The notes beneath the pieces were generated by a model, which saw only the letters and a list, made by a program, of their open reading frames with translations, made no database searches and had not been told where the DNA came from. From a virus, in IMG/VR virus record IMGVR_UViG_3300050821_003315: a stretch of DNA of 64,000 nt; one strand, given 5' to 3'. Both the position numbers and the translations under genes were made by a program. Shown here one piece after another: positions 18,536-38,031 of this stretch. Every line of letters begins with the position of its first letter. The stretch's first letter is position 1.

Positions 18536-18697
18536 CTACAAGCGACCCGGCTTAGCTTGACTTTCTTTATCTTGAGTAACCTTAGAAATACCCTCTAGGT
18601 AGCTTTCAGCACATTCTTGAGAGCAAAGGTCCACCTCTTCGTGGACCCCTCGCCAATAAGTGCCGCACTGAGCGCACTCAAGCCAGTCCTTGTGCAT
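18536..18697 (-). CDS. 53-aa Cys-rich (CxxC...CSxxC) putative zinc-binding protein (below ORF-track cutoff)
   Basis: MHKDWLECAQCGTYW...DLCSQECAESYL; TAATG coupling to the upstream gene. Confidence 0.6.
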   Translation of the reverse strand: MHKDWLECAQCGTYWRGVHEEVDLCSQECAESYLEGISKVTQDKESQAKPGRL

Positions 18698-19779
18698 TAG
18701 AAGAAGCCTAGATTATCCATTTCGTTCATCAGCCACTGCCCGTGAGCATCAAAATTCCGGTCAGCAATAGCTTCTCGCGCCTGGTTGCCCAACCCTACTC
18801 GCCTGTCTTCGTCAGCCAGTAGCCAGCGGAGCTTTTCTGTGGCGTCATCAGGGGTTGTGAAGGTAGGCAGGAACGGGAAAGTCTCGTCGCTTTCAGCCCT
18901 AGGGTCACGCAGGAACGGTAGTCCGCAAGCGGCCATTTCTACTTCCCTAGGACCCATGGCCCAGCCATCGTAGTTGTTGTGGCTTTCCCCTTCACGACGA
19001 TAAAGGTTAATTCCTGCACGAGAACCCCGGTATACCCGAGCTGTCTCCGCGTTCTCCACACAGTGGTCAGGGTCGTGGCTCAAGAATTTCCTCAAGGGTG
19101 ACTCAGAATCCATGGTGTCCCAGGCACTACCGCCTAGAGCTACATCCATGCCTGTGAAGTCCATGCGCTCCAGAAACTTAATCCTTGAGGGGAATGCGGT
19201 TCCCACAAAAGCGAAGTCAGACGGGTCCTCGTGCGCCTCGCCAGCGGGCTGCGGATAGTGAACAAGAGGGTGGTAGGCGTGAGGAACATAGTAAGCGGGG
19301 GCTTCCAGAGTCCGCCACTCGGCCAAGTTCATGGGGTCATTGACGAGGTTAAGGTCAGCGAATTGTCCTCGGAGATATTGTTCTCCGTCTTGGTAGGGCG
19401 ACTCCGTGTGAATCAATACTACCTTGCGGCCTCGTAGGCGCATTAGCTCGAACATGCCAGCCGTCGTGTAAAAAGCTGACACGAATATCATGACATCAGG
19501 CATGAAGGTCCACACCGCGTGAGAAAGACCCTGCATGGTTAGCAGCATTGCCTGCTCGTTGTCCAGCGCTGTCTTCACTCTAAACTGGTCACAAGTAGGA
19601 CACGGCCTCTGGTAGTCCCAATCACGAAGCTGAGCCTGCGCATAGAACGACAAGCGGTCATTAGTGTTGTAAGTCGCTACGACCGCCCCTTGACGTTCTA
19701 GGCCATACTTCCAGCCATTGAAAACGTCAGCTACGGAAAAGTCTGGCCCAGGATGAACCAGTAGAATACGCGGTGCCAC
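18697..19779 (-). CDS. CgeB/YkvP-like glycosyltransferase (GT-B fold)
   Basis: DFAFVGT...R...YRGSRAGINLYR...MGPREVEMAACG, a CgeB-type C-terminal domain. Confidence 0.85.
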   Translation of the reverse strand: MAPRILLVHPGPDFSVADVFNGWKYGLERQGAVVATYNTNDRLSFYAQAQLRDWDYQRPCPTCDQFRVKTALDNEQAMLLTMQGLSHAVWTFMPDVMIFVSAFYTTAGMFELMRLRGRKVVLIHTESPYQDGEQYLRGQFADLNLVNDPMNLAEWRTLEAPAYYVPHAYHPLVHYPQPAGEAHEDPSDFAFVGTAFPSRIKFLERMDFTGMDVALGGSAWDTMDSESPLRKFLSHDPDHCVENAETARVYRGSRAGINLYRREGESHNNYDGWAMGPREVEMAACGLPFLRDPRAESDETFPFLPTFTTPDDATEKLRWLLADEDRRVGLGNQAREAIADRNFDAHGQWLMNEMDNLGFF

Positions 19780-19795
19780 TATCCGCTACCTCTCT

Positions 19796-20254
19796 TTACG
19801 CCATTATCTGAACTTCAAGGCGAGCACCGAAGTACTCCACACCACCGTAGGGAAGCCTACCATAATGCCCGACTTGAATAGGCACAGTGCTCATAACTAT
19901 GCCGCCTAGCGTGGGGTCCATCTGAATGGCCATAGGTACGGAAATCTGGTCAGCCGCAGTACCTAGGTCAAGAAAAGCGTCCAGTTGCTGCTGCTCGCGG
20001 TCAGCCGTTGAGCTGTCTGACACCAGAATTAGTACGCAAAGATTAACACAAACGCCAAATTGCATTTGCCCAAGGTCGTTGAAGGTGTCAGCAAAGGTAT
20101 CGCCGTACTTGATGTAGGGACTGCCAGGCAGAATTAGTGCTACAGGCCCTACTCCCTGGTCCAGTGGTTCAGCTTGCGCTCGTAGCTGCGGGTTTACGCA
20201 GTACGTCTGAATCTGGTTAGCTAGCGCTTGGCGGATTTGAGTCAGTGTTGCCAC
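19796..20254 (-). CDS. Tail terminator-like protein
   Basis: MATLTQIRQALANQI...DPTLGG...YGGVEYFGARLEVQI pattern; position in the neck module; GTG at 20254 after GGAGAGGAG. Confidence 0.7.
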   Translation of the reverse strand: MATLTQIRQALANQIQTYCVNPQLRAQAEPLDQGVGPVALILPGSPYIKYGDTFADTFNDLGQMQFGVCVNLCVLILVSDSSTADREQQQLDAFLDLGTAADQISVPMAIQMDPTLGGIVMSTVPIQVGHYGRLPYGGVEYFGARLEVQIMA

Positions 20255-20780
20255 GTTGTATCTCCTCTCCAAGTACTGCTGTCATAGGTGCGGGTGGCGC
20301 AGTGGCTATAGCTGATTTAACGTTAATGGCGCGCAAGATAGCGTGAACATCACTTTGCAGGTCTTCAAGCAAAGCCGTGGCTTCTTTAATCTGCGCTGTC
20401 ATATCGTTGTTCTCAGTAAGAAGCTCGTCCATCTTAGAAGTTTCCGTGTAATGCGCGATAGATTGTTCTGCGGCTACACGGTCAGCTCTCTTAGCTGCGA
20501 TAAGGATTAGTGCTCCTTGCAGGCCAGCCATCATGGATAGTGACAAGTTCAGTAGGATGTAAGGGTAGTGGTCAAATCCGCCATGAAGCACGACGGTGTT
20601 CAACAGCATCCATATTGCCATGAACCCTAGGAAACTGCCAACGAAAGCCCAGGAGCCAAAGGCGTTACGCATAATGTCAGCAGCGCGTTCACCGAAGGTT
20701 AGCTGGTTGTCAGTGCGCACATGAGGGTGCATTCTCCACAGCCCCCGTCCGGTGTAAATACCTTTACCATCGCTACTCAT
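20217..20780 (-). CDS. DUF1003-family membrane protein
   Basis: TFGERAAD...FGSWAF...FDHYPYILLNLSLS...LQGALIL signature. Confidence 0.88.
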   Translation of the reverse strand: MSSDGKGIYTGRGLWRMHPHVRTDNQLTFGERAADIMRNAFGSWAFVGSFLGFMAIWMLLNTVVLHGGFDHYPYILLNLSLSMMAGLQGALILIAAKRADRVAAEQSIAHYTETSKMDELLTENNDMTAQIKEATALLEDLQSDVHAILRAINVKSAIATAPPAPMTAVLGEEIQRGNTDSNPPSAS

Positions 20781-21006
20781 ACTCTGCCTCGTCAGTACCA
20801 TTCACCATGATGGCCAGGAACCACGACTTAACCATGTCGTAAGCTCGGTGCTCCGGAAAACCAGCATCCTGCAACTTGTGATAAAACGTGGCCAGGGCAA
20901 CGCACGTGGAGTCCTGAGGGTCCATCTCACCCATAATGCCCGCCATCAGGTTCTCGGCAATCTGGTTGACTTCCTCAGGGCTTAGCTCGTTGTCGTCATC
21001 TGCCAT
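20773..21006 (-). CDS. Hypothetical protein
   Basis: Acidic ORF overlapping both neighbours. Confidence 0.6.
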   Translation of the reverse strand: MADDDNELSPEEVNQIAENLMAGIMGEMDPQDSTCVALATFYHKLQDAGFPEHRAYDMVKSWFLAIMVNGTDEAEYE

Positions 21007-21881
21007 TTCAATGCCCAAGCTTCCTCTACGTGGTCAGGTACAGGGTAAGATTCACCCCAGGAAGCCATCTTACCATCAGGTAGCAATAGCGCTACATGGT
21101 CGCCGTTGTCGGTAGGAAACGAGATAAGCAGTGCTCCTTCAAGGGGTTCGCCTATTTCCAGCTGTGTATGAGTCTCAAGCTTAACGTTATCCCAAAGCTC
21201 GCCGGACGTAGCGGCTTCCAGAGTTTGCTCAACGTCTTCCCCGCCACCCGCAGCGTGAAGCATCCACACTTGTTCATCCGTTAGGCGCAATCCTGTACTA
21301 ATCCACAGGTGGTTAGCTATGGCGACCGCTATACAGCAGTCATACTTTTCGTCATTGCCTGCGGTAATCCACGGGCCTTCGGACTTCTTGACGCCCACGG
21401 CAGTCTTAGGGCTTGACGGCACTGCGGCTGCTGCGTTAGCTCCTGCCGCTATCTGAGCCGCAGACCTAGCTTTTGTGCGTGCATAGAACGCAGCACTCCC
21501 TGTCTGCCGCTGCATGCTCTTAGACAACCCCCCACGCTTTCCCTGAGCAGCACTGGCATTAATAGCCATAGAACGTACTGCGGCTTTATTAGCCGCTGCT
21601 CTTTCAGCGCTAGCAAATTGGGCAGCGCTTAGACGACCGCCTACTACTTGAGTTCCGGCATTACCTTGAACAGATGCAGGCTGAGGTGCTGTGCCTGGCG
21701 GAAAAGGAGCTACCTTACCGACTTGTTGCCCTAGCTGTTGCAAGAACTTACGATTGGCAGCCTGGTTGTAAGCTTTCATTTGGGACGTGCTGTAGGCAGG
21801 TAGCGCATTAGGCGCTTTTTGCGCAGCAGTCTTCTTAGGCGCAACGAAAGGAGTCTTGGATACTCCTGCTTTAGCTGCCAC
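20982..21881 (-). CDS. Hypothetical protein: basic low-complexity N-terminus plus possible papain-like C-terminal domain
   Basis: Ala/Lys/Gln-rich first ~165 aa, then GNDEKYDCCIAVAIAN...GDHVALL...ASWG. Confidence 0.55.
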   Translation of the reverse strand: MAAKAGVSKTPFVAPKKTAAQKAPNALPAYSTSQMKAYNQAANRKFLQQLGQQVGKVAPFPPGTAPQPASVQGNAGTQVVGGRLSAAQFASAERAAANKAAVRSMAINASAAQGKRGGLSKSMQRQTGSAAFYARTKARSAAQIAAGANAAAAVPSSPKTAVGVKKSEGPWITAGNDEKYDCCIAVAIANHLWISTGLRLTDEQVWMLHAAGGGEDVEQTLEAATSGELWDNVKLETHTQLEIGEPLEGALLISFPTDNGDHVALLLPDGKMASWGESYPVPDHVEEAWALKWQMTTTS

Positions 21882-22135
21882 TAGTCCTCCAAGTGCACGG
21901 TTTCGGGTCCCGAACTGGCAAAGCCGAACGGCATACGAGCTGGTAGCTCATTAACTCCTGCGTGCTCAAAGGGAGGGTAGGCCCGTTCTGCACTAGCGTG
22001 AGGCACTGAATGCGGGTCATGAGCCAAATGCTCTACCTCTTCGCCTTCCTCAAGCTCAACCTCCTCGTCTTCTACCTTTCGGTACGCGGAAGCCATCTCA
22101 AAACGCCGACCAAACATCTCAAGGACGATATGCAT
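21881..22135 (-). CDS. Hypothetical acidic protein
   Basis: ORF coupled to the downstream gene. Confidence 0.55.
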   Translation of the reverse strand: MHIVLEMFGRRFEMASAYRKVEDEEVELEEGEEVEHLAHDPHSVPHASAERAYPPFEHAGVNELPARMPFGFASSGPETVHLED

Positions 22136-22144
22136 GGCCTAATC

Positions 22145-23149
22145 CTACATCCCAACCTTGCGATTACTTCGGATATACGGTCGCAAAAGTTCCACAATCC
22201 AAGAGTTAGAACCAGCCTTGGCTATGCCCAGGTCAGAGACGCCTAGGACACCAAAGGTGGCATCCTTTAGCTTGAAGTATTCAGCCGATAGCATAAGGCA
22301 CGCCTGAGAAATAGCTGGCGGAATGACCGGCCATCCCCACACGCCTGTTACTTTAACTCGGTCCAGATGCGTGAAAGGCCAAATGAACGGGAAGAACTGA
22401 CCGCCGGCGGGAGCACCCTGACTTCCAATCAACACCTGCACCTGGCGATAAGGACGTGGTACACCGAGATAGTTTGAGTTGTACAACTCAAAGCCACGAC
22501 GTAGCTGGTAGTTAACGTTCTGTGTCCAAGAAGTCTCAAACACTCCATCGCCATCGTAGTCTAGCGCAAGAGCACTGACACTTACTATGGGGTCAATGTC
22601 TAGCAACCAGATATCACTAGGTGCGAATGTGCGACTTTCCGTAATCTGGTAGAAGTGCTGAGCGCAGTACTCGTTAATCCAGTTTGTCGCTGCTTGGATA
22701 GCTGTGGTCATCTCATAGTCGCTAGCAGTATCAGTTATGCTGAGGCGCGACTTTAGCTCGTCTAGGCCACAATACCACTGGACCTGAGAAGTACCTGATT
22801 CACTGCTGTAAGGCAGGATTCGGAAGGTATCTGCTTGTACTGTCGTGCCGCCTGGGCCTCCTGTACTTCCCACACCAATCCACATGGCGGACCAAAGGCC
22901 CGTAGGCACAGGATTAGGTGAGTACAGCACTGAGGCTTGCAAGTTGAACTGGTACTGGCCTGTGGCCACTTTACTAATGATGTTGCGGCCTGAGCCACCT
23001 GTGTACGTGTAGCTGGTTTGCAGTCCTTGAGGGTCTGTCGTAACGAGCTGAATAGTTCCAGGGTCTACAGGACTACCACTAGGGTCAGTAAAAGTTATGG
23101 TGATAGGCACCACTGACCCGGACAGGTCATAGTAAACCGCACTTGTCAC
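22145..23149 (-). CDS. Head-to-tail adaptor (gp6/gp15-like) with N-terminal beta-rich extension
   Basis: YCGLDELKSRL...AATNWINEYC...VTGVWGWPVIPPAISQACL...LLRPY adaptor signature. Confidence 0.85.
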   Translation of the reverse strand: MTSAVYYDLSGSVVPITITFTDPSGSPVDPGTIQLVTTDPQGLQTSYTYTGGSGRNIISKVATGQYQFNLQASVLYSPNPVPTGLWSAMWIGVGSTGGPGGTTVQADTFRILPYSSESGTSQVQWYCGLDELKSRLSITDTASDYEMTTAIQAATNWINEYCAQHFYQITESRTFAPSDIWLLDIDPIVSVSALALDYDGDGVFETSWTQNVNYQLRRGFELYNSNYLGVPRPYRQVQVLIGSQGAPAGGQFFPFIWPFTHLDRVKVTGVWGWPVIPPAISQACLMLSAEYFKLKDATFGVLGVSDLGIAKAGSNSWIVELLRPYIRSNRKVGM

Positions 23150-24079: not shown

Positions 24080-24610
24080 CTAGTGGATAATCACGCCTGT
24101 GATAATGCTAGCCATAGCTACCAGGAAGGAGATAATTGTCGCTATGAGTAGAAGATTCTCCCGCCTAGTACGGCCTGTTACAGCGTTTGCGACATTACCG
24201 CCTTGAGTTACGTCCAGGCGGCTGCTAAGCCGGAGTTCGAGGTCAGCTATGTGCTTAGAAGTCTCTTCTACTTTCTGCACAAGATATTTTTGCGCTTCAT
24301 CGTACTCACCACGAGGCAAGAAAGTTCGTGCTTGGTCACTAAGCTGACCACGGAACTCATTAACAGACTCAAATCGCTTTTCCGCTGCTGTTTCTGCCTT
24401 GGTAGTGGCTTGTTTTGATGCCTCAAGAGCAGCACTAACTGCTTTTTCGGCAGCCTCAAAGGCAGTACTCATAGCCTCTTGATTAGATGCCTGACGTTCA
24501 TCCAGCAAACGCATCATGTCAGCACGGGCTTGAGCATTAAACCTGTCAGCAGCGTCTATCTTTTCGGCAAGTCGGGCAAGCTCTATTGCGCAGTTATAGT
24601 TATCGCACAC
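24080..24610 (-). CDS. Coiled-coil protein with C-terminal transmembrane helix
   Basis: AEKRFESVNEFRGQLSDQ coiled coil; LLLIATIISFLVAMASIITGVII TM segment. Confidence 0.75.
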   Translation of the reverse strand: MCDNYNCAIELARLAEKIDAADRFNAQARADMMRLLDERQASNQEAMSTAFEAAEKAVSAALEASKQATTKAETAAEKRFESVNEFRGQLSDQARTFLPRGEYDEAQKYLVQKVEETSKHIADLELRLSSRLDVTQGGNVANAVTGRTRRENLLLIATIISFLVAMASIITGVIIH

Positions 24611-24634: not shown

Positions 24635-25159
24635 TTACTTAACAGTGTACAAAACAGATGACCCTACAGTACGTAGTCCTTCAGGGAACAGCGCATCTAG
24701 AGCCGGCTTAACATCAGGACAGCAGCAGTATTCGTGGTAATCGTGGAACATGATAGTTCCACCCGGCTTCAGCAACGGTAGTGAATTGCGAGCGTCTGCG
24801 GTAACTCCGTCAAAAGCATGCTCACCGTCAATGAATATGAAATCGAACTTGTCAGTAAGCTGCGGTAGCATAACGGTAGAGTCACCCTCCACCACGGTAA
24901 CCTTATCCCTTATACCTTGCTCAATCACATTATTATCCCACTGAGGGTAGCTGCATATGGGCGGGAATAGGTCTACTGATGTTACGTGAGCGGCTGTGCT
25001 AGCAAGAACTGAAGTAGAGAAACCGTAAGCTACTCCTACTTCCATAACGTTCTTGCCCGTAGCTTGCGTACGGAGTTCTTCCGCTTCTTCGTCCAGCAGG
25101 GACGTAAAAATTCCACGATTACCAGGAATCGGGCTGATGTCACGCCATGGCAGGTGCAT
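24635..25159 (-). CDS. Class I SAM-dependent O-methyltransferase (Methyltransf_24-like)
   Basis: VMEVGVAYGFS; FDFIFIDGEH; LKPGGTIMFHDY. Confidence 0.9.
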   Translation of the reverse strand: MHLPWRDISPIPGNRGIFTSLLDEEAEELRTQATGKNVMEVGVAYGFSTSVLASTAAHVTSVDLFPPICSYPQWDNNVIEQGIRDKVTVVEGDSTVMLPQLTDKFDFIFIDGEHAFDGVTADARNSLPLLKPGGTIMFHDYHEYCCCPDVKPALDALFPEGLRTVGSSVLYTVK

Positions 25160-25160
25160 T

Positions 25161-25883
25161 TTAGATATCTCCAGCTAGTTTGGCCCAGTAACGTTCGCCT
25201 GACAAGTGTTCTGCCCAGAACCTTCGCCAGTCGGTAGTGCGTAGACAGTTCCCTCCAGAGTTAGCGACCGCATAACCGGTAGCTGCTTCTATTGGTGAAT
25301 TGCCGCTATTTAGGAGAGGAAAACTTACGCGCTGAAACAGGTCAGTAGTGCAGAAGAATGCTCCTCCGTACTTAAGAGTAGCATTGTAGTACTCACCAGG
25401 CATATCTTCTTGATAGTTGTCCCACCAAGGTGCGCCGCTGCCTATCGCGTAAGCTATGCCGTTAACTATAACATTAGGTCCACTAGTGCTGCCCCCACCA
25501 CTTGCCGATATCTTGTCTAGTCGATGCGGCACTAGATAATTACTGCCCCGTACAACGCTTAGAACACCTGAGTCGTAGTTAAGTAGCTGGTCAGCTTCGG
25601 TGACGTAAACGTGCGTGTATTCCGTGTCCAACCCCAGTTTTTGTGCTTCGGTATTTACTAGGGCCGGGATGTGCCAAGGGTTTTCGTAGTGCACGCGGAT
25701 TATACTGACACTCAGAGCTTCTACGTCCGCTGCGTCTTCTTCACGACCTACTCCCACGTACAGTTCGTCAACAAAGTCCAGAGCATTTTCTACTGTACGA
25801 CGCAAGTACTCAATGCGTTCAGGGGAATTTGTACACTCGGGGCTAGAACCTGCGTAGTAAGGGATTATCCCTACAACTTTCAC
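25161..25883 (-). CDS. Putative GT-A fold glycosyltransferase
   Basis: N-terminal GIIPYY...YLRRTV, VYVTEADQ (DxD-like) and late EHLSG; located in the glyco cluster. Confidence 0.55.
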   Translation of the reverse strand: MKVVGIIPYYAGSSPECTNSPERIEYLRRTVENALDFVDELYVGVGREEDAADVEALSVSIIRVHYENPWHIPALVNTEAQKLGLDTEYTHVYVTEADQLLNYDSGVLSVVRGSNYLVPHRLDKISASGGGSTSGPNVIVNGIAYAIGSGAPWWDNYQEDMPGEYYNATLKYGGAFFCTTDLFQRVSFPLLNSGNSPIEAATGYAVANSGGNCLRTTDWRRFWAEHLSGERYWAKLAGDI

Positions 25884-26542
25884 TCAAGAATCCTCTGACG
25901 CGGACTGTCTGGGTTCGGAGCATCCCTGTACGCCTGGCAAGTAACGTGAGGGTAATGCTTCCAGGTAATACCGTGCGCCATCCAGCGCTGTGCAATATCC
26001 CAATCAATAGTGTCCTGTCCTTCATCTCGCCAATTTACTCGCTCCAGAATTGCTTTGCGGTGAGCTATAGCTGAAGTTGAGATGCCGGAGTATGTAGGTG
26101 GGTCTGTGCCTGAGATGTTAGGGTTGCCTGGGTCGTAAATCATAATTCGCGAATAGGAGAAGCCTGCTTGTGGGTCTTGCTTGAGCATAGCCATGAGAGC
26201 TGACAGGTGATTAGGCAAGTACTCATCGTCGTCGTCCAAGTACGCTACGAAATCTCCTTTAGCTCGCCGTATTCCTTCTAGTCTTGCAAAGTGACCCCAA
26301 CGTGAATTGTCATGATGAGCCGGAAGTTCTGCGTACTCCAACTCGTAGTCTGAATACAGGAAAGCTTTACTGCTTGCCTTGAATAGGCTTCGCAATTCGG
26401 GGTTAGGACCGTCCGCTACGACAACATGCTGAATAGGGCGGTACTCCTGCAAAGCTACGGACAATACTGCCCGTAGCACAGATGCGTCTCTATGCCAGGT
26501 AGGCGTAACTACCGTGATGAGGTCAGCCATTCCTGGTACCAC
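25880..26542 (-). CDS. Family 2 glycosyltransferase
   Basis: ITVVTPTW; VVVADG; AKGDFVAYLDDDDEYLPNHL. Confidence 0.93.
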   Translation of the reverse strand: MVPGMADLITVVTPTWHRDASVLRAVLSVALQEYRPIQHVVVADGPNPELRSLFKASSKAFLYSDYELEYAELPAHHDNSRWGHFARLEGIRRAKGDFVAYLDDDDEYLPNHLSALMAMLKQDPQAGFSYSRIMIYDPGNPNISGTDPPTYSGISTSAIAHRKAILERVNWRDEGQDTIDWDIAQRWMAHGITWKHYPHVTCQAYRDAPNPDSPRQRILE

Positions 26543-27354
26543 TCAATAGTTTCCGTCGCCTTATACGGCCATAGGTTGTTGCACACAGGCTTAGTGGCTA
26601 CTACTACAGCATCCCTCGGCTCCCCACTGCGTCCCGCCACCGTGGTGATAGTTGATGAGGATGTAGGAATCTTCGACAGAATGTCTTGCGCGACCTGGTC
26701 TACGGAAATAGGCACTCCGTTACCTGCTTCTACCACAGTGCCGTAAGGTCCCGCCAGAGCATCTACAAGCGCTACGGCCACGTCATCCACGTAAACGGTA
26801 TCAATTAGCTGCTCACCGGTCCCGCACAGCTCCAGCGGCATGTTAGTTAGTGCCCGCGTCGCGAAGGTGGGGAAGAACTTGTGAACGCTGGCAGTGCCGT
26901 GTGGCGGCCCTACCGGCTGACCTGGCCCATACACGTGATACGCACGCAGGATAGTTACTTCGTGACCAAGCCACTGTGCTCGGGCAAGACCTAGGTCTTC
27001 CGCGCAAGCCTTGGTTAGCGCGTATGGATTAGGCTGGCCTTTATGCCCGGTCCCTACCTGAACTACCGGAATGCCGACTTCAGAAGCGACATCATAAACG
27101 TTGATGGCACCGATGATGTTAACTTCCGCCGCCTTGGCTTCATGGCCGAATAGTTCAGGGGTGCCTAGCATACCAGCCAGGTTGATGATGCCTTGAACGT
27201 CGGTCAATCGCACGATTTCCCGTAGAGCACTGACATCACGGATGTCAGATGAAGGAAGGTCATACGGGATTGCGGTCATGCCGCGCGCAGCTAGCTCATT
27301 GCAAGTAGGCTTCCCGATAAAGCCACTGCTGCCAGTAACGAGAATGTTAGTCAC
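26509..27354 (-). CDS. NAD-dependent nucleotide-sugar epimerase/dehydratase/reductase (extended SDR)
   Basis: ILVTGSSGFIG; PYALTK (YxxxK); VYGPGQ. Confidence 0.92.
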   Translation of the reverse strand: MTNILVTGSSGFIGKPTCNELAARGMTAIPYDLPSSDIRDVSALREIVRLTDVQGIINLAGMLGTPELFGHEAKAAEVNIIGAINVYDVASEVGIPVVQVGTGHKGQPNPYALTKACAEDLGLARAQWLGHEVTILRAYHVYGPGQPVGPPHGTASVHKFFPTFATRALTNMPLELCGTGEQLIDTVYVDDVAVALVDALAGPYGTVVEAGNGVPISVDQVAQDILSKIPTSSSTITTVAGRSGEPRDAVVVATKPVCNNLWPYKATETIEWYQEWLTSSR

Positions 27355-27378: not shown

Positions 27379-27945
27379 TTAGGGCTTAATCCATGCGCCG
27401 CGCCTGATTTCCCAGTCATCAATGACTATGGGCCAGTTACCCGGTGGGTGAAGTTCCCAGGCACCGCCTGCTAGGATTGCTCCTGACTTCATGTTCTTGT
27501 GAATCATCTCTTCGAGCGCACGCTCTGACGGGATGTCACGGAACGGTCGGTACAGCCAGATGATGTCGTAGTCCTGATACAGGCCAGGAACTTCTAGCGC
27601 GTCTTGAACTAGGATGTCACCTGTCTTCCACTTGCGCGCTTCAGCCGCCATGTCCGCGTCAACTTCAACGCCGTCTGCATCAAGGCCGAACACCTCACTA
27701 GCCAGTGCTACTTTAGTGCCGATGCCACAACCTACGTCAAGAAATGTGAAGCCCTCGGTATAGGTGATGCATTCTGCCAGCATTGCAATGAAGTTAGATG
27801 GCTGGAAGGGCATCCACGGCAGGTACTTGTCGTCGTGACGGTTACCGTGAGTTAGCCACTCAGGCTCCATCTCTTCTACCTGCTGCATGAGACGCCTAAT
27901 ACGCCATGGTCGTGACTCTTCTAGGTCACCGTTTACCAGCCGCAT
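27379..27945 (-). CDS. Class I SAM-dependent methyltransferase
   Basis: FLDVGCGIG; GVEVD; IIWLYRPF. Confidence 0.88.
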   Translation of the reverse strand: MRLVNGDLEESRPWRIRRLMQQVEEMEPEWLTHGNRHDDKYLPWMPFQPSNFIAMLAECITYTEGFTFLDVGCGIGTKVALASEVFGLDADGVEVDADMAAEARKWKTGDILVQDALEVPGLYQDYDIIWLYRPFRDIPSERALEEMIHKNMKSGAILAGGAWELHPPGNWPIVIDDWEIRRGAWIKP

Positions 27946-29156: not shown

Positions 29157-29746
29157 TAGCCCTTCTTCCTCAAGCACGCCATGCCGTAAATGTAGCGCAA
29201 TTCAACTACACTATTCACGTCCCCTGCGGATATTTTCTTAGCCCCTTGGTCGGTAAGGTCTTTTTCAGGTTTGAGGTCAGTAATAAAGTCCTTAGCCAGG
29301 TCTACCATACTAGTACCTGCGTAACTAGGGAAGTGCGGATTGTCTACAAGCCCCACAGCCCAGTCTTCTAGTACGTACCAACCTCCGGGCCGCACTACAG
29401 GCCACAGTAGTCGGTACGTTTCCTTGGAGAGCATTCCGTAATGCGAGGCATCATCAATTACCAGGTCGTATCCGTCATTGGAGTAAAACAGCACTCTAGC
29501 GGCTAGAGCTGGGTCACACTGGTCCGTTATTAGAACAGGAATGTCTTGAGGCCACAGTGGCTTATGTGTAGCAGAAATTTCTACCCCACAGATAATGGCC
29601 TCAGGAAACCACTCTTTCCACATCCTCAAGGAATCGCCGCAGTACACTCCTACTTCTAGTATTCGCGGAGCAGGTGCAGCGGAAGCTAGCAGTTCTTTAT
29701 AAGTAGACGCGTAATTAAGTGTTTCTTTATCAGTCTTAACGCCCAT
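29156..29746 (-). CDS. Sugar O-methyltransferase-like (class I SAM)
   Basis: ILEVGVYCGDSLRMWKEWFP; DLVIDDASH; PGGWYVLEDW. Confidence 0.85.
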   Translation of the reverse strand: MGVKTDKETLNYASTYKELLASAAPAPRILEVGVYCGDSLRMWKEWFPEAIICGVEISATHKPLWPQDIPVLITDQCDPALAARVLFYSNDGYDLVIDDASHYGMLSKETYRLLWPVVRPGGWYVLEDWAVGLVDNPHFPSYAGTSMVDLAKDFITDLKPEKDLTDQGAKKISAGDVNSVVELRYIYGMACLRKKG

Positions 29747-30906
29747 TAGGCACCTTCGCGAACCGGACTGAAGGCCCGTACTACACCCGTAATCTTGTCC
29801 ACATCGTCCCAGGCTAGGTCAGGGTACAGCGGCAAGGTAACTAGCTCGCGCCATACCTTTTCTGTGACAGGCAAATTCCGCGCGTTCGGGAAAACGCCCT
29901 TGTAATATGTGATGGGCTTGTAGTGAACGCCCGCTGATACGCCGTGAGCCAGCATGTGGTCAATGAACCTGTCGCGATTCGTGGCGTTAATGCGCACTGT
30001 CATCAGGTGGTTCGATTCATACGGGCTAAAGTCTTCTCGCATCTTAAGCCAGCTTAGGCCGTCAAAACCAGCCTTGTACTGCTTGAGAATCTGGAAGCGA
30101 GCATCGTTCATTTCGTTCAATCGCGATAGTTGAACACGGCCCAGTGCTGCGGCGATGTCGTTAAGGTGAGCTTTCTCGCCGTCAACCGGAATATCGTAAT
30201 CCCAGTTATACCCCTTCTTATTGTCCCGCTCCCACGTAGACCGGTCAATTCCACACCAGCGTAGTGGCTTGAGCTTGGCGTAAGCCAGAGGGTCAGTGGT
30301 GGTTACCATCCCGCCGTCCCCCACAGCAAGGTTCTTTACGGCCTGGAATGACCACGCTGCTGCGTGGCCCACAGTTCCCGCTAGCCGCGTGCCTGCGGCA
30401 TGCGCGCAGTCCTCGATAACCGTAATGCCCTCCGGAAGGGCCGGAGGGAGCGATACGCGCCCTGCGTACCACACGGGGACAATCGCCTTAGGGGCGTCCT
30501 TGCGGCGGGCTGTGGCGCTCTCTAGCGTGTTCAGGGCATCATCCCAGTCAAGGCACATCGTAGTCTCGTCAATATCAGCGAAAACTACCTTGTTCTGGGC
30601 GTGCAACATCGCCTGACCTGTAGATACGAACGTGAGTGCAGGCACTACAACTGTACCCTTCTCAACTCCCAGTGAACGAGCAGCCAATTCTAGTGCGGAA
30701 GTACAGGAATTAACTCCGACCGCGTAGGGAGAAGTAGAGAACTGGTGCCTCGTGCCCGCCGCGTGTGCCTGAACTCGCAAGTACTCTGCAAAGTCCTTTT
30801 CGAAAGCTTCCACTTCCGGACCTAGTGCCCACCAACCGGACTTAAGGACGCGGGTTACCGCTTCAATTTCCCGGTCAGTTACTGACGGCTTGAACAGAGG
30901 TATCAT
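29746..30906 (-). CDS. DegT/DnrJ/EryC1/StrS PLP-dependent sugar aminotransferase
   Basis: VNSCTSALELA; IEDCAHA; WSFQAVKNLAVGDGGM (PLP Lys); LVTLPLYP. Confidence 0.95.
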   Translation of the reverse strand: MIPLFKPSVTDREIEAVTRVLKSGWWALGPEVEAFEKDFAEYLRVQAHAAGTRHQFSTSPYAVGVNSCTSALELAARSLGVEKGTVVVPALTFVSTGQAMLHAQNKVVFADIDETTMCLDWDDALNTLESATARRKDAPKAIVPVWYAGRVSLPPALPEGITVIEDCAHAAGTRLAGTVGHAAAWSFQAVKNLAVGDGGMVTTTDPLAYAKLKPLRWCGIDRSTWERDNKKGYNWDYDIPVDGEKAHLNDIAAALGRVQLSRLNEMNDARFQILKQYKAGFDGLSWLKMREDFSPYESNHLMTVRINATNRDRFIDHMLAHGVSAGVHYKPITYYKGVFPNARNLPVTEKVWRELVTLPLYPDLAWDDVDKITGVVRAFSPVREGA

Positions 30907-31370
30907 GATGTAATCATTTCTGTGTAGGGCAGGTAACGGTGCATGGAAACCATTCCGGGGCGCGGCCTTACGGACACTGTGCGGTTAAAGCCGTTCTTCC
31001 GGTAGAACTCAATGGCCTTATCATTGTCTTGCTTAACGTACAAGAAGAAGTCACCAGGCCCGTAAGCTTTCATGAGCATATTAAGTGCTTGCGACATCAA
31101 ACCTGTACGTGCATATTCTTTGGCCCCGAGCATCACGCGTTGGATTTCGCGCGTATCTGAGCGGATACCGATGGTACCCACAGGAAGAACATCGTCTATG
31201 ATAACTGCATACATGTGGTCCGAAGGGTCCACAATGTAGCTGTCAAACCACTCCTGTTGCATATTACGAGAGATAGGTTGTGTATCTCCGAAGAAATCAG
31301 CGTTCGCATTGCGCCATACTCGAACCACCTCTAGCAGGGCATAGTGCAACTTCTCTAGCTGTACGTCCAT
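30903..31370 (-). CDS. GNAT N-acetyltransferase (PseH-like amino-sugar acetylase)
   Basis: VRVWRN...QQEWF; YARTGLMSQA; NDKAIEFYRKNGF. Confidence 0.85.
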   Translation of the reverse strand: MDVQLEKLHYALLEVVRVWRNANADFFGDTQPISRNMQQEWFDSYIVDPSDHMYAVIIDDVLPVGTIGIRSDTREIQRVMLGAKEYARTGLMSQALNMLMKAYGPGDFFLYVKQDNDKAIEFYRKNGFNRTVSVRPRPGMVSMHRYLPYTEMITS

Positions 31371-32104
31371 TACGCCTTACTCCAAGTAGATACAGGTGTG
31401 AAGCGATGAATAGCTAGCGTTCGGTAGATTGGCTGGAAAGTGTACTTTTCCGCTAGTTTCAGAAGAAACAGGCCGTCAGAGTGACGAGCTACGTCTCCCT
31501 CGAAAGTCTCCGGGAATCTAGGCTTCTCAAGCTGCTCCAAGCATTCCTTGCGATAAATAACCTGGCCGCCATCAATGTACCCATCTATGTTCCAGTTGGT
31601 GGAGTCCTTGCCGCGCGTACCATTAGCTGGAATCATGAAGATAGGCATGCCTTTAACCACACGATGGTCCACCGCGCGGATTCCTTTGAGACCGAACCAA
31701 GCTACTGCCCAGTCTTCGTGGTCGTTAATGTGCTCCGCACAAACCTCAAAGCAGTCTTCCATGAGTAGGTCATCGTCACTAAGGTAAAAAATCCACTTAC
31801 CGTTAGCCTCAGGGTGGTATACGTTAAGTAGCCAGGACGGGACGTACTTAGTCTTCCTGATTTCCTTAGGAACAGTCATCTCCTCATAGTGAAACCGAGG
31901 GTCGGTGAGGATTTCAGGCATGCGCTGCTTGAGCAAGGGACGCGTCGTGGTGTCGGTGCTGTTCTCGATAATCCAGCACTCCCAATCCTGAAACGTCTGG
32001 TTCAGGACGCTCTGAATAGCTTGAACAGCATACGGTCCCTTGTTATGGGACAGCAAGAAGCAGGAGAACAAGGGTGACGTACTCTTACTCACAAGCTCAC
32101 ACAT
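31370..32104 (-). CDS. Family 2 glycosyltransferase (SpsA-like)
   Basis: AIQSVLNQTFQDWE; GKWIFYLSDDDL; IDGGQVIYRK. Confidence 0.9.
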   Translation of the reverse strand: MCELVSKSTSPLFSCFLLSHNKGPYAVQAIQSVLNQTFQDWECWIIENSTDTTTRPLLKQRMPEILTDPRFHYEEMTVPKEIRKTKYVPSWLLNVYHPEANGKWIFYLSDDDLLMEDCFEVCAEHINDHEDWAVAWFGLKGIRAVDHRVVKGMPIFMIPANGTRGKDSTNWNIDGYIDGGQVIYRKECLEQLEKPRFPETFEGDVARHSDGLFLLKLAEKYTFQPIYRTLAIHRFTPVSTWSKA

Positions 32105-33152
32105 TTCTTCCGAAAGTCCAGTTGGCTGGATACAGCTTACTGTATGCGTGTTCCCACCGCGTCCAGTGCTCATCGATAGTGTGCTGTGCCGCAGTGGCCT
32201 TGCCGGCTTCTCCCATCTTGTGTCGCAAGTCATTGTCGCTTGCAAGATTAGACAGGACCTCTAGCCATTCGTGGTCACGCTTAACCAAGAAGCCGTTCTC
32301 ACCGTGGACCACTAGTTCGTTGTACGGAGCGCAGTCACTAGCGACCACCGGAATGCCGCGCGCCATGTACTCCAGAGCTTTAATATAGCTCTTGGACTTA
32401 GCAAACTCGGTATCGATTAGCGGGCAAATCCCGATATCAAAGTCGATGCTCTTGTAGTAGAGGTCTGGCTCATCAGTCACCTTAATCCACGGCTCGTGAA
32501 AAGCACGGTCTCGGGCAACTTTGAAGCTAGGCCGAAAGTCTACACCACCTAGGTAAAGGTCCCACTCCGGGAAACGCTTCAGGAAGCGCCTCACCGAGGG
32601 TGTGGCAAGATGCACATCACGTCCGTGCGAAGCACCCCCTACCCAGCCGACCCGAGGGCGCTTACGCTCAGTACGGGACTGCTTAAGAACGTATGCAGGG
32701 ATAAGGTTTTGCAGTACTACAGTGTTCGGATTGAACTCATCATGAATAGCTTTAAGGCGGTCTGTAGATACGGTGACAAGGTCTGATACTTCACAAGCAG
32801 CTACAACAGCTTCGCGTACGTCAATACGCTGATAGTGCTGGAAGGCTTGCCAGTTTTCTTGTGTTACGTTAAACAGGTCGTCATCGTTCTCGTATACGAG
32901 TCGACTGAACGGAGTGCGTCCCCTGCGCCACACACTAAGACCGTCGTACTTGTTGATTCGCTGCCCTACTACAAGGTCGAAGCCTGAGAAGTTACGAGTA
33001 AGCTCGAACCCCTCTGTTTCGTCGTAAGGCGTGCGCTCGTTGTGAGCTGTAACGAAGGTCACGTCATACCCGTGCTTACGGAACTCTAGCAGAGGCTGGA
33101 TGACTCTGTACCAAGCACAACCGGAGCTGTCATGTATAGCCAATATTCGCAT
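32097..33152 (-). CDS. GT-B (family 4-like) glycosyltransferase
   Basis: SGCAWYRVIQP; YENDDDLF; DIGICPL...KSYIKALEYMARGIPVVASD. Confidence 0.9.
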   Translation of the reverse strand: MRILAIHDSSGCAWYRVIQPLLEFRKHGYDVTFVTAHNERTPYDETEGFELTRNFSGFDLVVGQRINKYDGLSVWRRGRTPFSRLVYENDDDLFNVTQENWQAFQHYQRIDVREAVVAACEVSDLVTVSTDRLKAIHDEFNPNTVVLQNLIPAYVLKQSRTERKRPRVGWVGGASHGRDVHLATPSVRRFLKRFPEWDLYLGGVDFRPSFKVARDRAFHEPWIKVTDEPDLYYKSIDFDIGICPLIDTEFAKSKSYIKALEYMARGIPVVASDCAPYNELVVHGENGFLVKRDHEWLEVLSNLASDNDLRHKMGEAGKATAAQHTIDEHWTRWEHAYSKLYPANWTFGRNV

Positions 33153-33360: not shown

Positions 33361-33816
33361 TTAACCAGCGCCTCCAGGAAGGAAAACGGTCACCAAGCTA
33401 CCCACAGCTATGATGATGGCAAACAACAGGACAGTACTGCCTACAGAAAGCACGGTTATCTTCTTGCCGCGAGCCTTAGCTCGAATCCAGCCTACGAACA
33501 CCGCGATTACGAATGAGATGACAATCATTAGCACGAACGCAGGTGTACCGCGCATGAACGCAAAGGGAAGAGCGGGTAGGATTGCTCCGATACCTGTAGC
33601 AGCGCCCATAATTGCAGAAGCTGAGAAACCGTTATCACTGTCTGACATGAATTCACTGCCACCCATAGACAGGGCTGAGGTTATAGCTCCCGATACGGCA
33701 GTCAGGAATATGAGGTCTTGGTGTCCAAGAAGGTAAAGTATTACTCCCAGGAGGGACATCATGCCATCGGCCAAACCAAATATGGTAGGCCGGAAGTGGT
33801 CCTGGAAGCGGCTCAT
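33361..33816 (-). CDS. VIT1/CCC1-family Fe/Mn transporter-like membrane protein
   Basis: RPTIFGLADGMMS; ALSMGGSEFMS; GAILPALPF. Confidence 0.82.
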   Translation of the reverse strand: MSRFQDHFRPTIFGLADGMMSLLGVILYLLGHQDLIFLTAVSGAITSALSMGGSEFMSDSDNGFSASAIMGAATGIGAILPALPFAFMRGTPAFVLMIVISFVIAVFVGWIRAKARGKKITVLSVGSTVLLFAIIIAVGSLVTVFLPGGAG

Positions 33817-34061
33817 TAGCGGAGGAACCCCTCCGACAGTACACGCCATTCACCGGTCTCGTTTACCCAGACCGCCACACTGTGGCAGCCTGGGCATTCG
33901 ATTGACGGTACTGGGTACTGGGTGCGGGGCAGGAGAACCCACCCGATGTTACTGGAAGCGAAGGTCACTATTTCCGTGCGCACACTGCCATTACGGCAAC
34001 GATGCGCGAAGCTCGTGCCCTCTATGCGCGATAGTGCCCTCGCGGTAGCGTCGATACTCAC
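33816..34061 (-). CDS. Hypothetical protein with HxC/CxxC
   Basis: FAHRC...PSIECPGCH. Confidence 0.55.
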   Translation of the reverse strand: MSIDATARALSRIEGTSFAHRCRNGSVRTEIVTFASSNIGWVLLPRTQYPVPSIECPGCHSVAVWVNETGEWRVLSEGFLR

Positions 34062-34585: not shown

Positions 34586-34589
34586 GTTG

Positions 34590-34818: not shown

Positions 34819-35358
34819 TTACGGCTTTACCGCACGTCCGCCACGCAGAGTACGGCCAGAGCCTGCACCTGTGCTGGTCGGGCGGTTGCCCTCAAGACCG
34901 GGAAGGGTGGGTCCGCCTGCGTAGCCGTCAGTGTTGGCCTGGGACCAATCGCCCATGCCGTCCACGTGACCCTGTGCAGTTGCCTCACGGAAAGGTCCGC
35001 CATCAAGGTAACCGGGAGGCGTGTAGGTAACACTGTCACCACCAGCTGCGTTAACTACGCCCTGAGTACCAGGCGAGCCAGTTTCAGCTGTGTCGTTCGG
35101 ACCAAGACCGGAGAAGTCTTCGTCAAGCTGACCAGGCATGTTGGTGGCATCAGCCGATGCGTCAGTCGCACTAGAACCAGCAGTACCGGGAGCACCGGTA
35201 CCCTGAGGCAATGCAACACCGAATAGGTCAGCGGGGTACTGACCGGGCTGGTCGGTAACATCCTCGCCGCCACCGCGACCAGCGCGGCCAACTATCTGCT
35301 CACGGGCAGGCACCGTGGTCGAAGCCAGCGCCTGACCTTCCTTAGGGTTAACAGCCAT
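34819..35358 (-). CDS. Gly/Asp/Thr-rich low-complexity protein
   Basis: RBS GAAAGGTG; codon bias like the capsid gene. Confidence 0.75.
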   Translation of the reverse strand: MAVNPKEGQALASTTVPAREQIVGRAGRGGGEDVTDQPGQYPADLFGVALPQGTGAPGTAGSSATDASADATNMPGQLDEDFSGLGPNDTAETGSPGTQGVVNAAGGDSVTYTPPGYLDGGPFREATAQGHVDGMGDWSQANTDGYAGGPTLPGLEGNRPTSTGAGSGRTLRGGRAVKP

Positions 35359-35405: not shown

Positions 35406-35903
35406 TTAAAGGCGTCCACCATAGCGGCTCTGTAGGTCTGCCTTGGTCAAAGATGATGCATCATCAGCATCGTGTCCCTGAGATACCGCATAAGTAACCC
35501 AGTCTGCCTTGGAAGCGTAGGGAGCAGGCTTCGTAACTTCCTCAACTGCTTCGTCTGCTGTGTCTTCTTCAGCCACAACTTCCTCGGTAGGCTCCTCGAC
35601 GTTTTCCTCAACTACAGGCTCTACATCTGCGGATACTTTAGGTGAAGAAACAGGCTGACCACCATGGTATTCGCGCTCAATTGGCTCATCGAGAGGAACT
35701 ACCTCAGAATCAACCTTCGGCTGGGAAAGGTTAGCTGCTTCCTCGTCAGAGGTGTACACAGCTTCTTTAATGCGGGTTAGTGCTTCGCCTTCCCACTCGG
35801 GAACGCTAAAAGGCTCACCAGGCGTCGGCCACTCACGGTTGTCATAACGCGAGCCATTGCGCTGGCTGATGAGCTTAATCCATACACGACGCTCGTCGCT
35901 CAT
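35406..35903 (-). CDS. Capsid-adjacent protein with C-terminal helix-extension-helix-like motif
   Basis: PAPYASKADWVTYAV...LTKADLQSRYG, a motif I recognise downstream of actinophage capsid genes. Confidence 0.7.
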   Translation of the reverse strand: MSDERRVWIKLISQRNGSRYDNREWPTPGEPFSVPEWEGEALTRIKEAVYTSDEEAANLSQPKVDSEVVPLDEPIEREYHGGQPVSSPKVSADVEPVVEENVEEPTEEVVAEEDTADEAVEEVTKPAPYASKADWVTYAVSQGHDADDASSLTKADLQSRYGGRL

Positions 35904-35965: not shown

Positions 35966-35980
35966 TCAAGGTCCCGCAGG

Positions 35981-37258
35981 TTAGCTTGCGCCACCCTTGA
36001 ACATCTTGATAGCGTTGGTGTCTACCAGTGTACCGTCACCACGGAGTAGTGCACGGAAGGTCACTAGGTCAGAACCGAACGCGAAGTCGTCGCTACGCTC
36101 GAATCGCACTCCACCGACAAGGCGGATGAAGTACTGAGCGAAGTCACCGAAAGCGATGGACAGCGCGCTCGTGCCGATTGCCGGCATGTACGGGTCTGCA
36201 ACTAGGGGCTTGCCCAGAAGCAGGTCCGGTGCGCCGAGAACCGCAGAGGGCTCCCAGACCGGGCGACCGTTGTTGTCGGTCAGCTTACGGAAGCTGCCCA
36301 CGGTCTTGTCAGCAGCGAGCCAGTAGCAGCTACGGGACTGACGGTAAGGAGCGATAACGGAGTACTCCATGTCAACCAGGTTGGCGTATGTTGCGCCACC
36401 GGTTGCCACGCCGTTACCGGAGATAGCGGAGGTCAGGCCACCCGTGACAGCCGGGGTTGCGCCCGCGAGGGACGTAAGACCACCGGAGATGCCGTTGGTG
36501 CCGTTAACCAGGGAGGTACCGAAGGAGTTACCAAGTGCACGACCAGCGCTCATTGCGAGGTAGCCGAGCAGGTCAACCGCAGTGTCGTCAATCAGTTCGC
36601 GAGCGACCTGAATCAGGACACCGAACTTCTGCGCACCCAGAGTGGTGAGCGTGAAGGTCGGGTCAGCGGTCGGAAGGCTTGCGTTCTGACCAGCGGACGT
36701 TGCCGTGGTGTGAGTCAGAGCCTTCGGAATCTGGAGGGTCTCGCCACCACCAGTGTTAAGGACCGTAGGTCCACACTGCATGATGCCGGAAACTTCAATC
36801 AGGTACGCAATGAGCTGGTCGTAGAAGTCAGTCGGGATGATACCGGAAGCGTTAGTTCCAGCACCCGCGCCTGCCGTGGTCAGAACACGGTAGTTAACCG
36901 GTCCTGCTGCCTGACGGCGAACTTCGAAGACAGACTTGCTGCCCTCTTCGCCACGTGCCCAACGGCGCAGCTCTTCTACGTACTGCGTGCCGCCCGCCTG
37001 CTGCGTGCTGCGCTCTGCCTTACGGCCACTCAGCTCGTCGTAAGCGTCGTCGGCCTCCTTGGCGCGCTTCTCAGTGTCGAGAACAGCCTTGAGGCGAGTG
37101 TCAATGTTGCCAAGCTCCTCCTGAAGAGCCTCCCACTTACCCTGCTCGTCCGGGGTAAAAGAGCGGTTCTCCTCAGCAGCGCTTTCTGCAATGCCCTTGG
37201 CCTCGTTCCAGACGTTCATACGCCGGTCACGGAGCCGCTTTGCGACTTCAGATGCCAC
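35981..37258 (-). CDS. Major capsid protein, HK97 fold
   Basis: Coiled-coil delta domain; ARELIDD; KLTDNNGRPVW; LLGKPLV; FGDFAQY. Start GTG 37258 after AGAAAGG. Confidence 0.96.
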   Translation of the reverse strand: MASEVAKRLRDRRMNVWNEAKGIAESAAEENRSFTPDEQGKWEALQEELGNIDTRLKAVLDTEKRAKEADDAYDELSGRKAERSTQQAGGTQYVEELRRWARGEEGSKSVFEVRRQAAGPVNYRVLTTAGAGAGTNASGIIPTDFYDQLIAYLIEVSGIMQCGPTVLNTGGGETLQIPKALTHTTATSAGQNASLPTADPTFTLTTLGAQKFGVLIQVARELIDDTAVDLLGYLAMSAGRALGNSFGTSLVNGTNGISGGLTSLAGATPAVTGGLTSAISGNGVATGGATYANLVDMEYSVIAPYRQSRSCYWLAADKTVGSFRKLTDNNGRPVWEPSAVLGAPDLLLGKPLVADPYMPAIGTSALSIAFGDFAQYFIRLVGGVRFERSDDFAFGSDLVTFRALLRGDGTLVDTNAIKMFKGGAS

Positions 37259-37395
37259 TAGCTTAACCTTTCTAGGTTTTAACTGGCACCGGCTCCGTCT
37301 ACCCAGATGGCGAGTATGGCCACGGCATGTCACTATCCATAATACAGATGGACGGCGTATTGACAATACCTAATCGTGAAACTAGGTGTATTTTT

Positions 37396-38031
37396 CTAAA
37401 GTTCCGGAGGTGAGAACGTCACAAGTACGTTCTTTTCTGGGTCAACGGGGACCGAAGGGTGGTAGTGAACTGTAAGAGCGTCAACAGACGCGTACTTAAC
37501 GCCCGCCTTAAGCCACGACAACACCAGTTCCCAGTCTTCGGCAGGATGTGCAGGACCCCAAGAGGCCGTATCAAGAAGTTCCCGGCGATGCATAAGCATA
37601 GATGTCTGAACACGACCGTGCGCGGGAGGTCCGTCCCCTATACGTACAGTCCCTTTAGTCATGTGCACTTCTGCTCGCGTGTAAGCAAATTGTGCTTCTT
37701 CATCTTCTAGTAGCGCAGATATTAGTACCTGAAGATGATTAGGCTCCCAGAGGTCGTCGTCGTCCAGGTAAGCGATGAAATCTCCGCGAGCTATATTCAA
37801 TCCGTAAGGACGAGCATGATGTCCCCAATGTTTCTCGGAATCATGCTGTGTTAGTTCCACGTAGCGCACGCTGTCTGGCCAGTTGTACTGACTTAGCATT
37901 AGGTCAGGTCCGTCTGAAATAATGATGTGCTCATGAGGCACCTGTTGCGCTTGAACTGTAGGCAAACACTTATGCAGCAGCGTGTCATGCCGTTGCCACG
38001 TCGGGGTTATCACGGATACTAGGGGCCTCAT
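37396..38031 (-). CDS. Family 2 glycosyltransferase
   Basis: VSVITPTW; ARGDFIAYLDDDDLWEPNHL; paralogue of 25880..26542. Confidence 0.93.
   Translation of the reverse strand: MRPLVSVITPTWQRHDTLLHKCLPTVQAQQVPHEHIIISDGPDLMLSQYNWPDSVRYVELTQHDSEKHWGHHARPYGLNIARGDFIAYLDDDDLWEPNHLQVLISALLEDEEAQFAYTRAEVHMTKGTVRIGDGPPAHGRVQTSMLMHRRELLDTASWGPAHPAEDWELVLSWLKAGVKYASVDALTVHYHPSVPVDPEKNVLVTFSPPEL

Follow-up and report, generated by a model that had tools for sequence, protein, structure and literature searches.

The virus of IMG/VR record IMGVR_UViG_3300050821_003315 carries, woven into its head and tail genes, an island of about 13 genes predicted to make, transfer and methylate sugars. The DNA analysed here (the window, 64,000 nucleotides in all) corresponds, as the reverse complement, to the first 63.9 kb of this 163.5-kb record, for which CheckV gives a completeness of 100%. 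All these genes were found on the minus strand; in agreement with an earlier note made from the letters of the window, they are co-oriented with the structural genes. They are tightly packed: the gaps between genes are mostly -65 to +50 nucleotides (nt), that is, overlaps or short spacers. The island lies between the portal and capsid genes on one side and the tail-tube and tape-measure genes on the other, and, as the note had also pointed out, one glycosyltransferase (GT) gene directly precedes the capsid gene and another is located just upstream of the major tail gene.

Read in the direction of transcription, the module opens with TerL, the portal, the S78 protease, an open reading frame (ORF) of 100 amino acids (aa), GT2_A, the major capsid protein (MCP), the connector, a protein that is probably disordered and several small ORFs. 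Then follow a VIT1-like protein, GT1_B, GT2_C, a GNAT enzyme, a DegT enzyme, the methyltransferase MT24_a, an RmlB-like enzyme and MT25. Next come a reductase/epimerase, GT2_D, ORF 25161-25883, MT24_b, two unknown ORFs, the head-tail adaptor and neck ORFs, one of them with a DUF1003 domain. The tail end consists of the tail terminator, GT1_E, the major tail (tube) protein (MTP), chaperone candidates and the tape measure (Table 1). The neck and tail-joining genes (19796-23149, minus strand) were assigned on the basis of PHROG 442 and 17840 and of PF06210.

Table 1. Features of the sugar island, candidate acceptors and neighbouring genes (SAM, S-adenosylmethionine; PLP, pyridoxal phosphate; NDP, nucleoside diphosphate; TM, transmembrane)
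Feature	Position	Strand	Basis and remarks
GT2_A, soluble GT-A (family 2)	37396-38049	-	PF00535, 47.8 bits
GT1_B, GT-B (GT4-like)	32097-33152	-	PF13692/PF00534
GT2_C, family 2	31370-32245	-	PF00535, 44.8 bits
GT2_D	25880-26542	-	PF00535 (GT2), 63 bits
GT1_E, CgeB-family GT-B	18697-19779	-	PF13524 (Glyco_trans_1_2), 52.8 bits against a cut-off of 25, residues 201-340
ORF 25161-25883, claimed sixth GT	25161-25883	-	no family assignment
MT24_a, probable SAM methyltransferase	29156-29746	-	PF13578, 24.8 bits, 1.5 bits under the cut-off of 26.3
MT25, SAM methyltransferase, core island gene	27379-27945	-	PF13649, 29.2 bits
MT24_b, methyltransferase	24635-25159	-	PF13578, 76.9 bits
RmlB-like NDP-hexose 4,6-dehydratase	28113-29177	-	PF16363/PF01370; TIGR01181 (dTDP-glucose 4,6-dehydratase), 205 bits, below the equivalog cut-off
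DegT/PseC/WecE-type PLP sugar aminotransferase	29746-30906	-	PF01041, 263 bits
GNAT N-acetyltransferase, weakly PseH-like	30903-31370	-	PF00583; TIGR03585, 27 bits, below the cut-off
Short-chain reductase/epimerase (4-ketoreductase/epimerase)	26509-27354	-	Pfam and NCBIfam searches
Swappable four-gene cassette	24635-27354	-	reductase/epimerase, GT2_D, ORF 25161-25883, MT24_b
MCP, HK97 fold	35981-37366	-	PF05065, 184 bits; C-terminus ...FKGGAS; candidate acceptor
MTP, 144 aa	17988-18422	-	C-terminus ...RYPVSGVSGT; candidate acceptor
TerL	41952-43637	-	
Portal	39553-41100	-	
S78 prohead protease	38399-39451	-	
Connector	35406-35903	-	
Gly/Thr/Ser/Pro-rich, probably disordered protein, 179 aa	34819-35358	-	behind the capsid and connector genes
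VIT1-like 4-TM membrane protein	33361-33849	-	PF01988, 38.4 bits; four hydrophobic segments
Coiled-coil membrane protein with C-terminal anchor	24080-24610	-	
Head-tail adaptor	22145-23149	-	
Neck-region ORF, 299 aa, Ala/Gln-rich N-half	20982-21881	-	ends ...QMTTTS
DUF1003 2-TM membrane protein	20217-20801	-	PF06210
Tail terminator	19796-20272	-	
Tape measure, 2816 aa	8210-16660	-	tail-lysozyme, NlpC/P60 and SLT domains

Enzyme families and the predicted donor pathway

Five of the six GTs that the earlier note had proposed score above the Pfam cut-offs; the sixth, ORF 25161-25883, matches nothing in Pfam or NCBIfam. GT2_A overlaps the ORF upstream of it by 7 nt and stops 29 nt short of the MCP gene; its homologues in related phages lie inside the island, at 44-49% identity, and a GT2_A-like gene is present in most of the large relatives described below. 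GT1_B is a core island gene that recurs in all five of these relatives at 49-94% identity. The true start of GT2_C is probably near 32104. A scan for hydrophobic segments found TM segments in none of the GTs or sugar enzymes. For ORF 25161-25883, only two homologues were detected among 5.8 billion proteins; Pfam searches with all three sequences at E-values up to 10 returned nothing useful, and the AlphaFold2 model built from them (pLDDT 40.3) is unusable. A motif conserved in them (HVYVTEAD) and a neighbourhood in a language model, with PF00535 in some of its clusters, are leads only.

Three methyltransferases had been claimed as well, of which two exceed the Pfam cut-off, and the third, MT24_a, falls just short of it but has homologues in the relatives. 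All belong to small-molecule/O-methyl classes. The four proposed nucleotide-sugar enzymes, a 4,6-dehydratase, an aminotransferase, an N-acetyltransferase and a reductase, are borne out without exception by curated Pfam cut-offs, and the first three complete, at the level of families, the trio for synthesis of NDP-4-acetamido-4,6-dideoxyhexose. The NCBIfam matches of the aminotransferase are to the PseC, ArnB and WecE types, all below the equivalog cut-offs, and no homologue of this enzyme was found among cultured actinophages. Bacterial pathways to NDP-4-amino-4,6-dideoxyhexoses, which supply the sugars of enterobacterial common antigen, O-antigen and flagellin, employ the same three families (RmlB, a WecE/PseC-type aminotransferase and an N-acetyltransferase), here found in a translationally coupled row. 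Unlike in the bacterial pathways, the scores lie under the equivalog cut-offs and the exact sugar is not assignable, the genes belong to a phage virion operon, and an RmlA-type enzyme is missing. This nucleotidyltransferase family (PF00483) is absent from the whole genome, with a control that was positive in 14 of 14 genomes, and the pathway must therefore begin at a host NDP-hexose.

The host donor would probably be dTDP-glucose, which the RmlB-like dehydratase is predicted to carry, as an NDP-hexose, to NDP-4-keto-6-deoxyhexose. From this intermediate, one branch would lead through the aminotransferase and then the GNAT enzyme to NDP-4-acetamido-4,6-dideoxyhexose. In a second branch, encoded by an optional cassette, the reductase would yield an NDP-6-deoxyhexose to be transferred by GT2_D. 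Farther along the genome, at ~105.8-107.3 kb (L157:4834-6279), we noted a gene for a NamH/CMAH-like protein with metallo-beta-lactamase-fold and Rieske domains; that this enzyme hydroxylates the N-acetyl group of the amino sugar to N-glycolyl is speculation.

Conservation and variation among relatives

Searches with the MCP yielded at least 49 uncultured viral loci at 50-98% identity, and those with the MTP yielded at least 129 uncultured viral loci, of which 80 were kept; contigs of both sets retain sugar genes in this part of the module; the MTP family as a whole comprises 411 representatives. Five relatives are large (G001-G005), with a completeness of 97-100% for four and of 81% for the fifth. 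The whole clade is uncultured and comes from soil. Megablast with the 24-kb region gave no DNA match to cultured phages, the MCP reaches only 31% identity with its top match among them, and the closest cultured homologues of GT1_B are in Streptomyces and Arthrobacter phages (31% identity to gp5 of Streptomyces phage Zuko). The host is probably actinobacterial; a search for a LysB-type cutinase found none.

Some 15-21 kb separate the capsid gene from the tail terminator, both in this phage and in each of the five large relatives, so the enlarged head-tail junction is a trait of the clade. GT1_B, GT1_E and MT25 are kept in 5 of 5, and the remaining content of the island varies. An RGP/GT75-like protein is encoded in the island of G004; those of G002 and G003 contain a TylC3-type sugar C-methyltransferase, a B12-binding radical-SAM enzyme, a GT17-like protein and another epimerase; and G003 has a UDP-glucose dehydrogenase beside GT1_E. 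The sharpest case is G001, with a capsid protein 98% identical to that of this phage and a collinear sequence at ~84% nucleotide identity, which lacks exactly the window segment 24624-27377 that holds the four-gene cassette, has an HNH-like ORF in its place and, adjoining the dehydratase, carries one more methyltransferase. Three members of the cassette (MT24_b, reductase and GT2_D) turn up together in more distant loci (L034 and L047), so this trio moves as a module. With sugar-tailoring genes swapped in this manner among relatives, the island appears to behave like a variable 'serotype' locus of the particle surface, and the pattern of gene content would point to diversifying selection acting on the surface of virions in a setting without an animal host.

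The sugar island of G004 also includes a dCMP/cytidine deaminase gene (L059:12650-13192). Such a gene would fit an island that glycosylates phage DNA, or else a small molecule, for example an anti-phage metabolite of the host, and hypermodification of DNA with diverse glycans by phage GTs is known (bioRxiv 10.1101/2023.12.21.572611). However, searches of which the controls worked found neither the thymidylate-synthase-like hydroxymethylase (PF00303) nor the C5 DNA methylase (PF00145) in the 163.5-kb genome, which leaves no hydroxymethyl-pyrimidine route; Tet_JBP (PF12851) gave no match in the genome either, but its positive control was also silent. Because, moreover, the methyltransferases are of small-molecule/O-methyl classes and the genes sit in the virion module rather than in a replication or early module, we consider modification of DNA or of a small molecule very improbable.

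The tail-tube gene pair and the ends of the virion proteins

GT1_E, flanked by the genes of the tail terminator and the MTP, forms a recurrent pair with the latter. The identity of the MTP is supported by its locus, between the tail terminator and the chaperone and tape-measure genes, and by matches of 28 of 28 relatives to PHROG major-tail families; an AlphaFold2 model from the alignment of these 28 sequences reached a pLDDT of 38.6. Among 5.8 billion proteins, 1718 homologues of GT1_E were detected, the best 120 of which all show 49-70% identity and all carry PF13524, many of them under the name CgeB given by JGI. No match to GT1_E was found in 50,697 cultured phage records, and sequence and profile searches of the PDB with GT1_E and the MTP returned nothing. 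Conservation is 97% or higher at about 50 residues in the two halves of GT1_E, as would be the case if the enzyme is active.

A GT1_E homologue lies directly upstream of the MTP gene in ~68 of the 80 close loci, and the five checked loci without it in that place all have GT1_E elsewhere on the record. The two genes also adjoin in 13 of 13 loci of a group with MTPs at 52-60% identity, and again in the single compact phage available (1/1), the MCP of which is 31% identical and the head-tail module of which is otherwise of normal size. In a still more distant MTP group (10 loci), there is no GT1_E-type gene within 8 kb; a scan of viral contigs with representative P0145 gave no relatives. This pairing suggests that GT1_E is most likely a tail-tube glycosyltransferase that would prime the hexameric tube protein.

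A parallel is provided by CgeB of Bacillus subtilis, which has been reported to add the first sugar to the exposed residue Thr112 of the hexameric spore-crust protein CgeA, with other GTs proposed to extend this sugar (PMC13577073). GT1_E belongs to PF13524, the family of CgeB-type enzymes, and, like CgeB, is encoded beside the gene of a surface protein that forms hexamers or rings, in this case among further GTs. However, the relation holds at the family level only, and the acceptor, the donor sugar and the biological setting are different.

The C-termini of the two candidate acceptors are also of note, given that an end of the form G.?[ST] is found in only 4.5% of the ORFs of this phage. In the close clade, the MTP ends in RYPxxG[IVL]xG[S/T] in 78 of 79 loci, with the last residue varying only between Ser and Thr. 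The capsid and tail-tube proteins of the mycobacteriophages Che8 and Corndog end in TGS, DGS, VGS and GDS, and passages in two papers that cite Freeman 2023 place the glycans of Che8, Corndog and Myrna at the C-terminal ends of their capsid and tail-tube subunits (PMC12619734, PMC12363180). Distant members of the MTP family mostly end ~8 residues earlier. Two of the distant relatives, P0128 and P0136, have acidic repeat tails ending in ...NEDGS, which resemble the ...SDGS end of the Che8 tail-tube protein and might represent another type of tag.

Reading of the island and known counterparts

The reading that fits these observations best, and one that we consider probable although by no great degree, is that the island would be a late, cytoplasmic system for glycosylation of the virion. 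It is preferred on account of gene position, the solubility of the enzymes, conservation across the clade and the Gly-x-Ser/Thr ends of capsid and tail tube. Under such a model, soluble GT-A and GT-B enzymes would assemble an O-linked oligosaccharide on new virion subunits before or during assembly, and the three SAM methyltransferases would O-methylate its sugars. GT1_E would most likely prime the tail-tube protein; GT1_B, GT2_A or both would most likely act on the MCP.

Several findings weigh against this interpretation. The putative sixth GT matches no known family, the model accounts for none of the three membrane proteins within the head-tail module (33361-33849, 24080-24610 and 20217-20801), and the enzymes show no resemblance to those of the known glycosylating phages (see below). 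Furthermore, one subclade of MCPs ends in KGG or QGGA yet retains the sugar genes, and in the 52-60% MTP group, 8 of 13 tube proteins lack a terminal Ser or Thr despite the adjacent GT1_E. A terminal Ser/Thr is thus not required for retention of the sugar genes, so that virion glycosylation, as the earlier note had put it forward, is favoured by position, solubility, conservation and C-termini but not by a universal terminal tag.

The case for the tube's terminal Ser/Thr as the acceptor that GT1_E needs is likewise weakened by the 52-60% group. Residue 131 of the MTP is Ser or Thr in the two groups that have GT1_E and Gly in the one that does not, a difference confounded by phylogeny, so that an internal acceptor at this residue is only a lead. 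Nor did any GT track the Ser/Thr end of the capsid protein in a clean pattern: G005 has the GGAS end without a GT2_A orthologue, and the KGG-ending subclade has GT1_B.

The inconstancy of the tags on both MCP and MTP leaves room for other acceptors among virion and assembly proteins, namely the disordered protein 34819-35358, a Ser/Thr-rich distal tail protein of 1957 aa (22% Ser+Thr) or ORF 20982-21881. The disordered protein, which has no match in Pfam or PHROG, is kept beside the capsid gene in most relatives (38-52% identity) but gave no match in some, for example G004 and a few shorter contigs; it is possibly a decoration protein or an extra glycan acceptor. ORF 20982-21881 has the same ...QMTTTS end in G001, and its counterparts in other relatives end in TVTSQ or TWES. 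Nevertheless, no GT is tied specifically to any of these proteins, and the strict adjacency of GT1_E and MTP together with the Ser/Thr-only variation at the MTP terminus favours the tube protein. Accordingly, we regard it as quite unlikely that these other proteins are the targets.

Actinobacterial surface glycolipids and wall polymers are also built in the cytoplasm by soluble GTs, O-methyltransferases and acetyltransferases. The same enzymes could therefore remodel an envelope glycoconjugate of the host during infection, such as a wall polysaccharide, a teichoic-acid-like polymer or a glycolipid with methylated deoxysugars, and thereby block superinfection or aid release, the position of the island being a historical accident. 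The three membrane proteins of the module would suit such a role, as would a separate membrane-type processive GT2 encoded next to a GH5/ricin hydrolase elsewhere in the genome. However, Pfam searches of the island proteins found no polyprenyl-phosphate GT, flippase, polymerase or GT-C family; the 4-TM protein matches PF01988 (VIT1) and neither GtrA nor Wzx. There would be little obvious value in altering the envelope shortly before lysis, by way of a late operon, and the pairing of GT1_E with the tail tube across very distant phages would be left without an explanation. The host-surface alternative, which the earlier note had named, is weakened by these points, and we deem it unlikely.

The processive-type GT2 just mentioned (474 aa, Glyco_trans_2_3) lies outside the window, at 117.8-120.9 kb of the genome (G000; L157:16807-19867), where its direct neighbour is a GH5 cellulase of 537 aa that contains a ricin-type lectin domain. 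The two possibly form an exopolysaccharide synthase/hydrolase pair separate from the virion island, and their locus is a better candidate than the island for a role in cell-surface polysaccharide.

Virion glycosylation by this island has counterparts, although the precedent invoked in the earlier note requires correction. That note had cited mycobacteriophages such as Che8 for GTs in the structural operon; in Che8, gp108-110 are encoded at 56-58.7 kb of a 59.5-kb genome, ~50 kb away from the capsid gene at 5 kb. The premise does hold for Corndog, in which an O-methyltransferase and three GTs lie in the structural operon, flanked by the genes for the portal and the protease (PMC4351075). BLASTP comparison of the GTs with Che8 gp108-110 and Corndog gp36-38 gave a best E-value of 0.001 over 27 residues, and the rest was noise; the methyltransferases have no detectable similarity to proteins of these systems (Che8 gp108-110, Corndog gp35-38) either, so the present system is analogous to theirs and not a member of the same gene families. 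In common with Che8, Corndog and Myrna, this phage has phage-encoded soluble GTs and a probable actinobacterial host; with Che8 and Corndog it shares Gly-x-Ser/Thr ends on capsid and tail-tube proteins; with Corndog in particular it shares an O-methyltransferase and sugar genes inside the structural operon. Unlike these phages, it adds a dehydratase, an aminotransferase, an N-acetyltransferase, a reductase and three methyltransferases, and its sugar genes split the head-tail joining region with ~13 kb of DNA, the content of which varies strongly among close relatives. The more elaborate, methylated glycan that had been suggested for this phage is a fair inference from this gene content. The serotype-converting Gtr cassettes (GtrA flippase, GtrB and GtrC) are similar in that phage-encoded genes, including one for a GT2 enzyme, modify sugars. 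However, those systems are membrane-bound, dependent on a lipid carrier and expressed from prophages, whereas all GTs of the island are soluble and GtrA and GT-C proteins are absent from it.

To our knowledge, only a few cultured mycobacteriophages have been shown to glycosylate their particles, and the modification is discussed there mainly as antibody shielding. If the virion reading is correct, such glycosylation extends to a large clade of soil phages, with enzymes that bear no relation to those described before, with exotic sugars of the phage's own making and with a gene content that shifts between near-identical phages. This would raise the question of what 'sees' the particles in soil. 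A broader picture can be offered tentatively, as one that we would not yet bet on: a large uncultured clade of soil actinophages would bear strain-variable tail-tube and capsid glycans made by phage-encoded nucleotide-sugar pathways, with a hitherto unrecognised CgeB-like family of more than 1,700 members as the dedicated tail-tube GT and the island as a fast-evolving 'serotype' locus. It would imply that soil harbours some agent of selection, as yet unknown, by which the surface of phages is recognised. The glycans in this picture would resemble the sugars of antibiotics, with amino, N-acyl, O-methyl and, in relatives, C-methyl deoxyhexoses. For laboratory work on phage protein glycosylation, GT1_E and the tail-tube protein offer a simple two-protein system.

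Scans of the module for promoters and terminators gave no more sites than were found in shuffled sequences. A promoter-like motif, GGAATA-N17-GTT, has 9 sites in the window compared to ~1 expected by chance, and none of them lies within 1,749-46,044; because the motif is missing from the structural block, it is uninformative on co-regulation inside the block. The block of virion and sugar genes appears to use a different class of promoter. The sole strong terminator-like site of the module is a GC-rich hairpin followed by a T-run (35953-35932, minus strand), located 28 nt past the capsid stop codon, which may act as an attenuator that raises capsid mRNA over that of the downstream genes. Finally, the tape measure, given its length and its three peptidoglycan-hydrolase domains, implies a very long, non-contractile tail.

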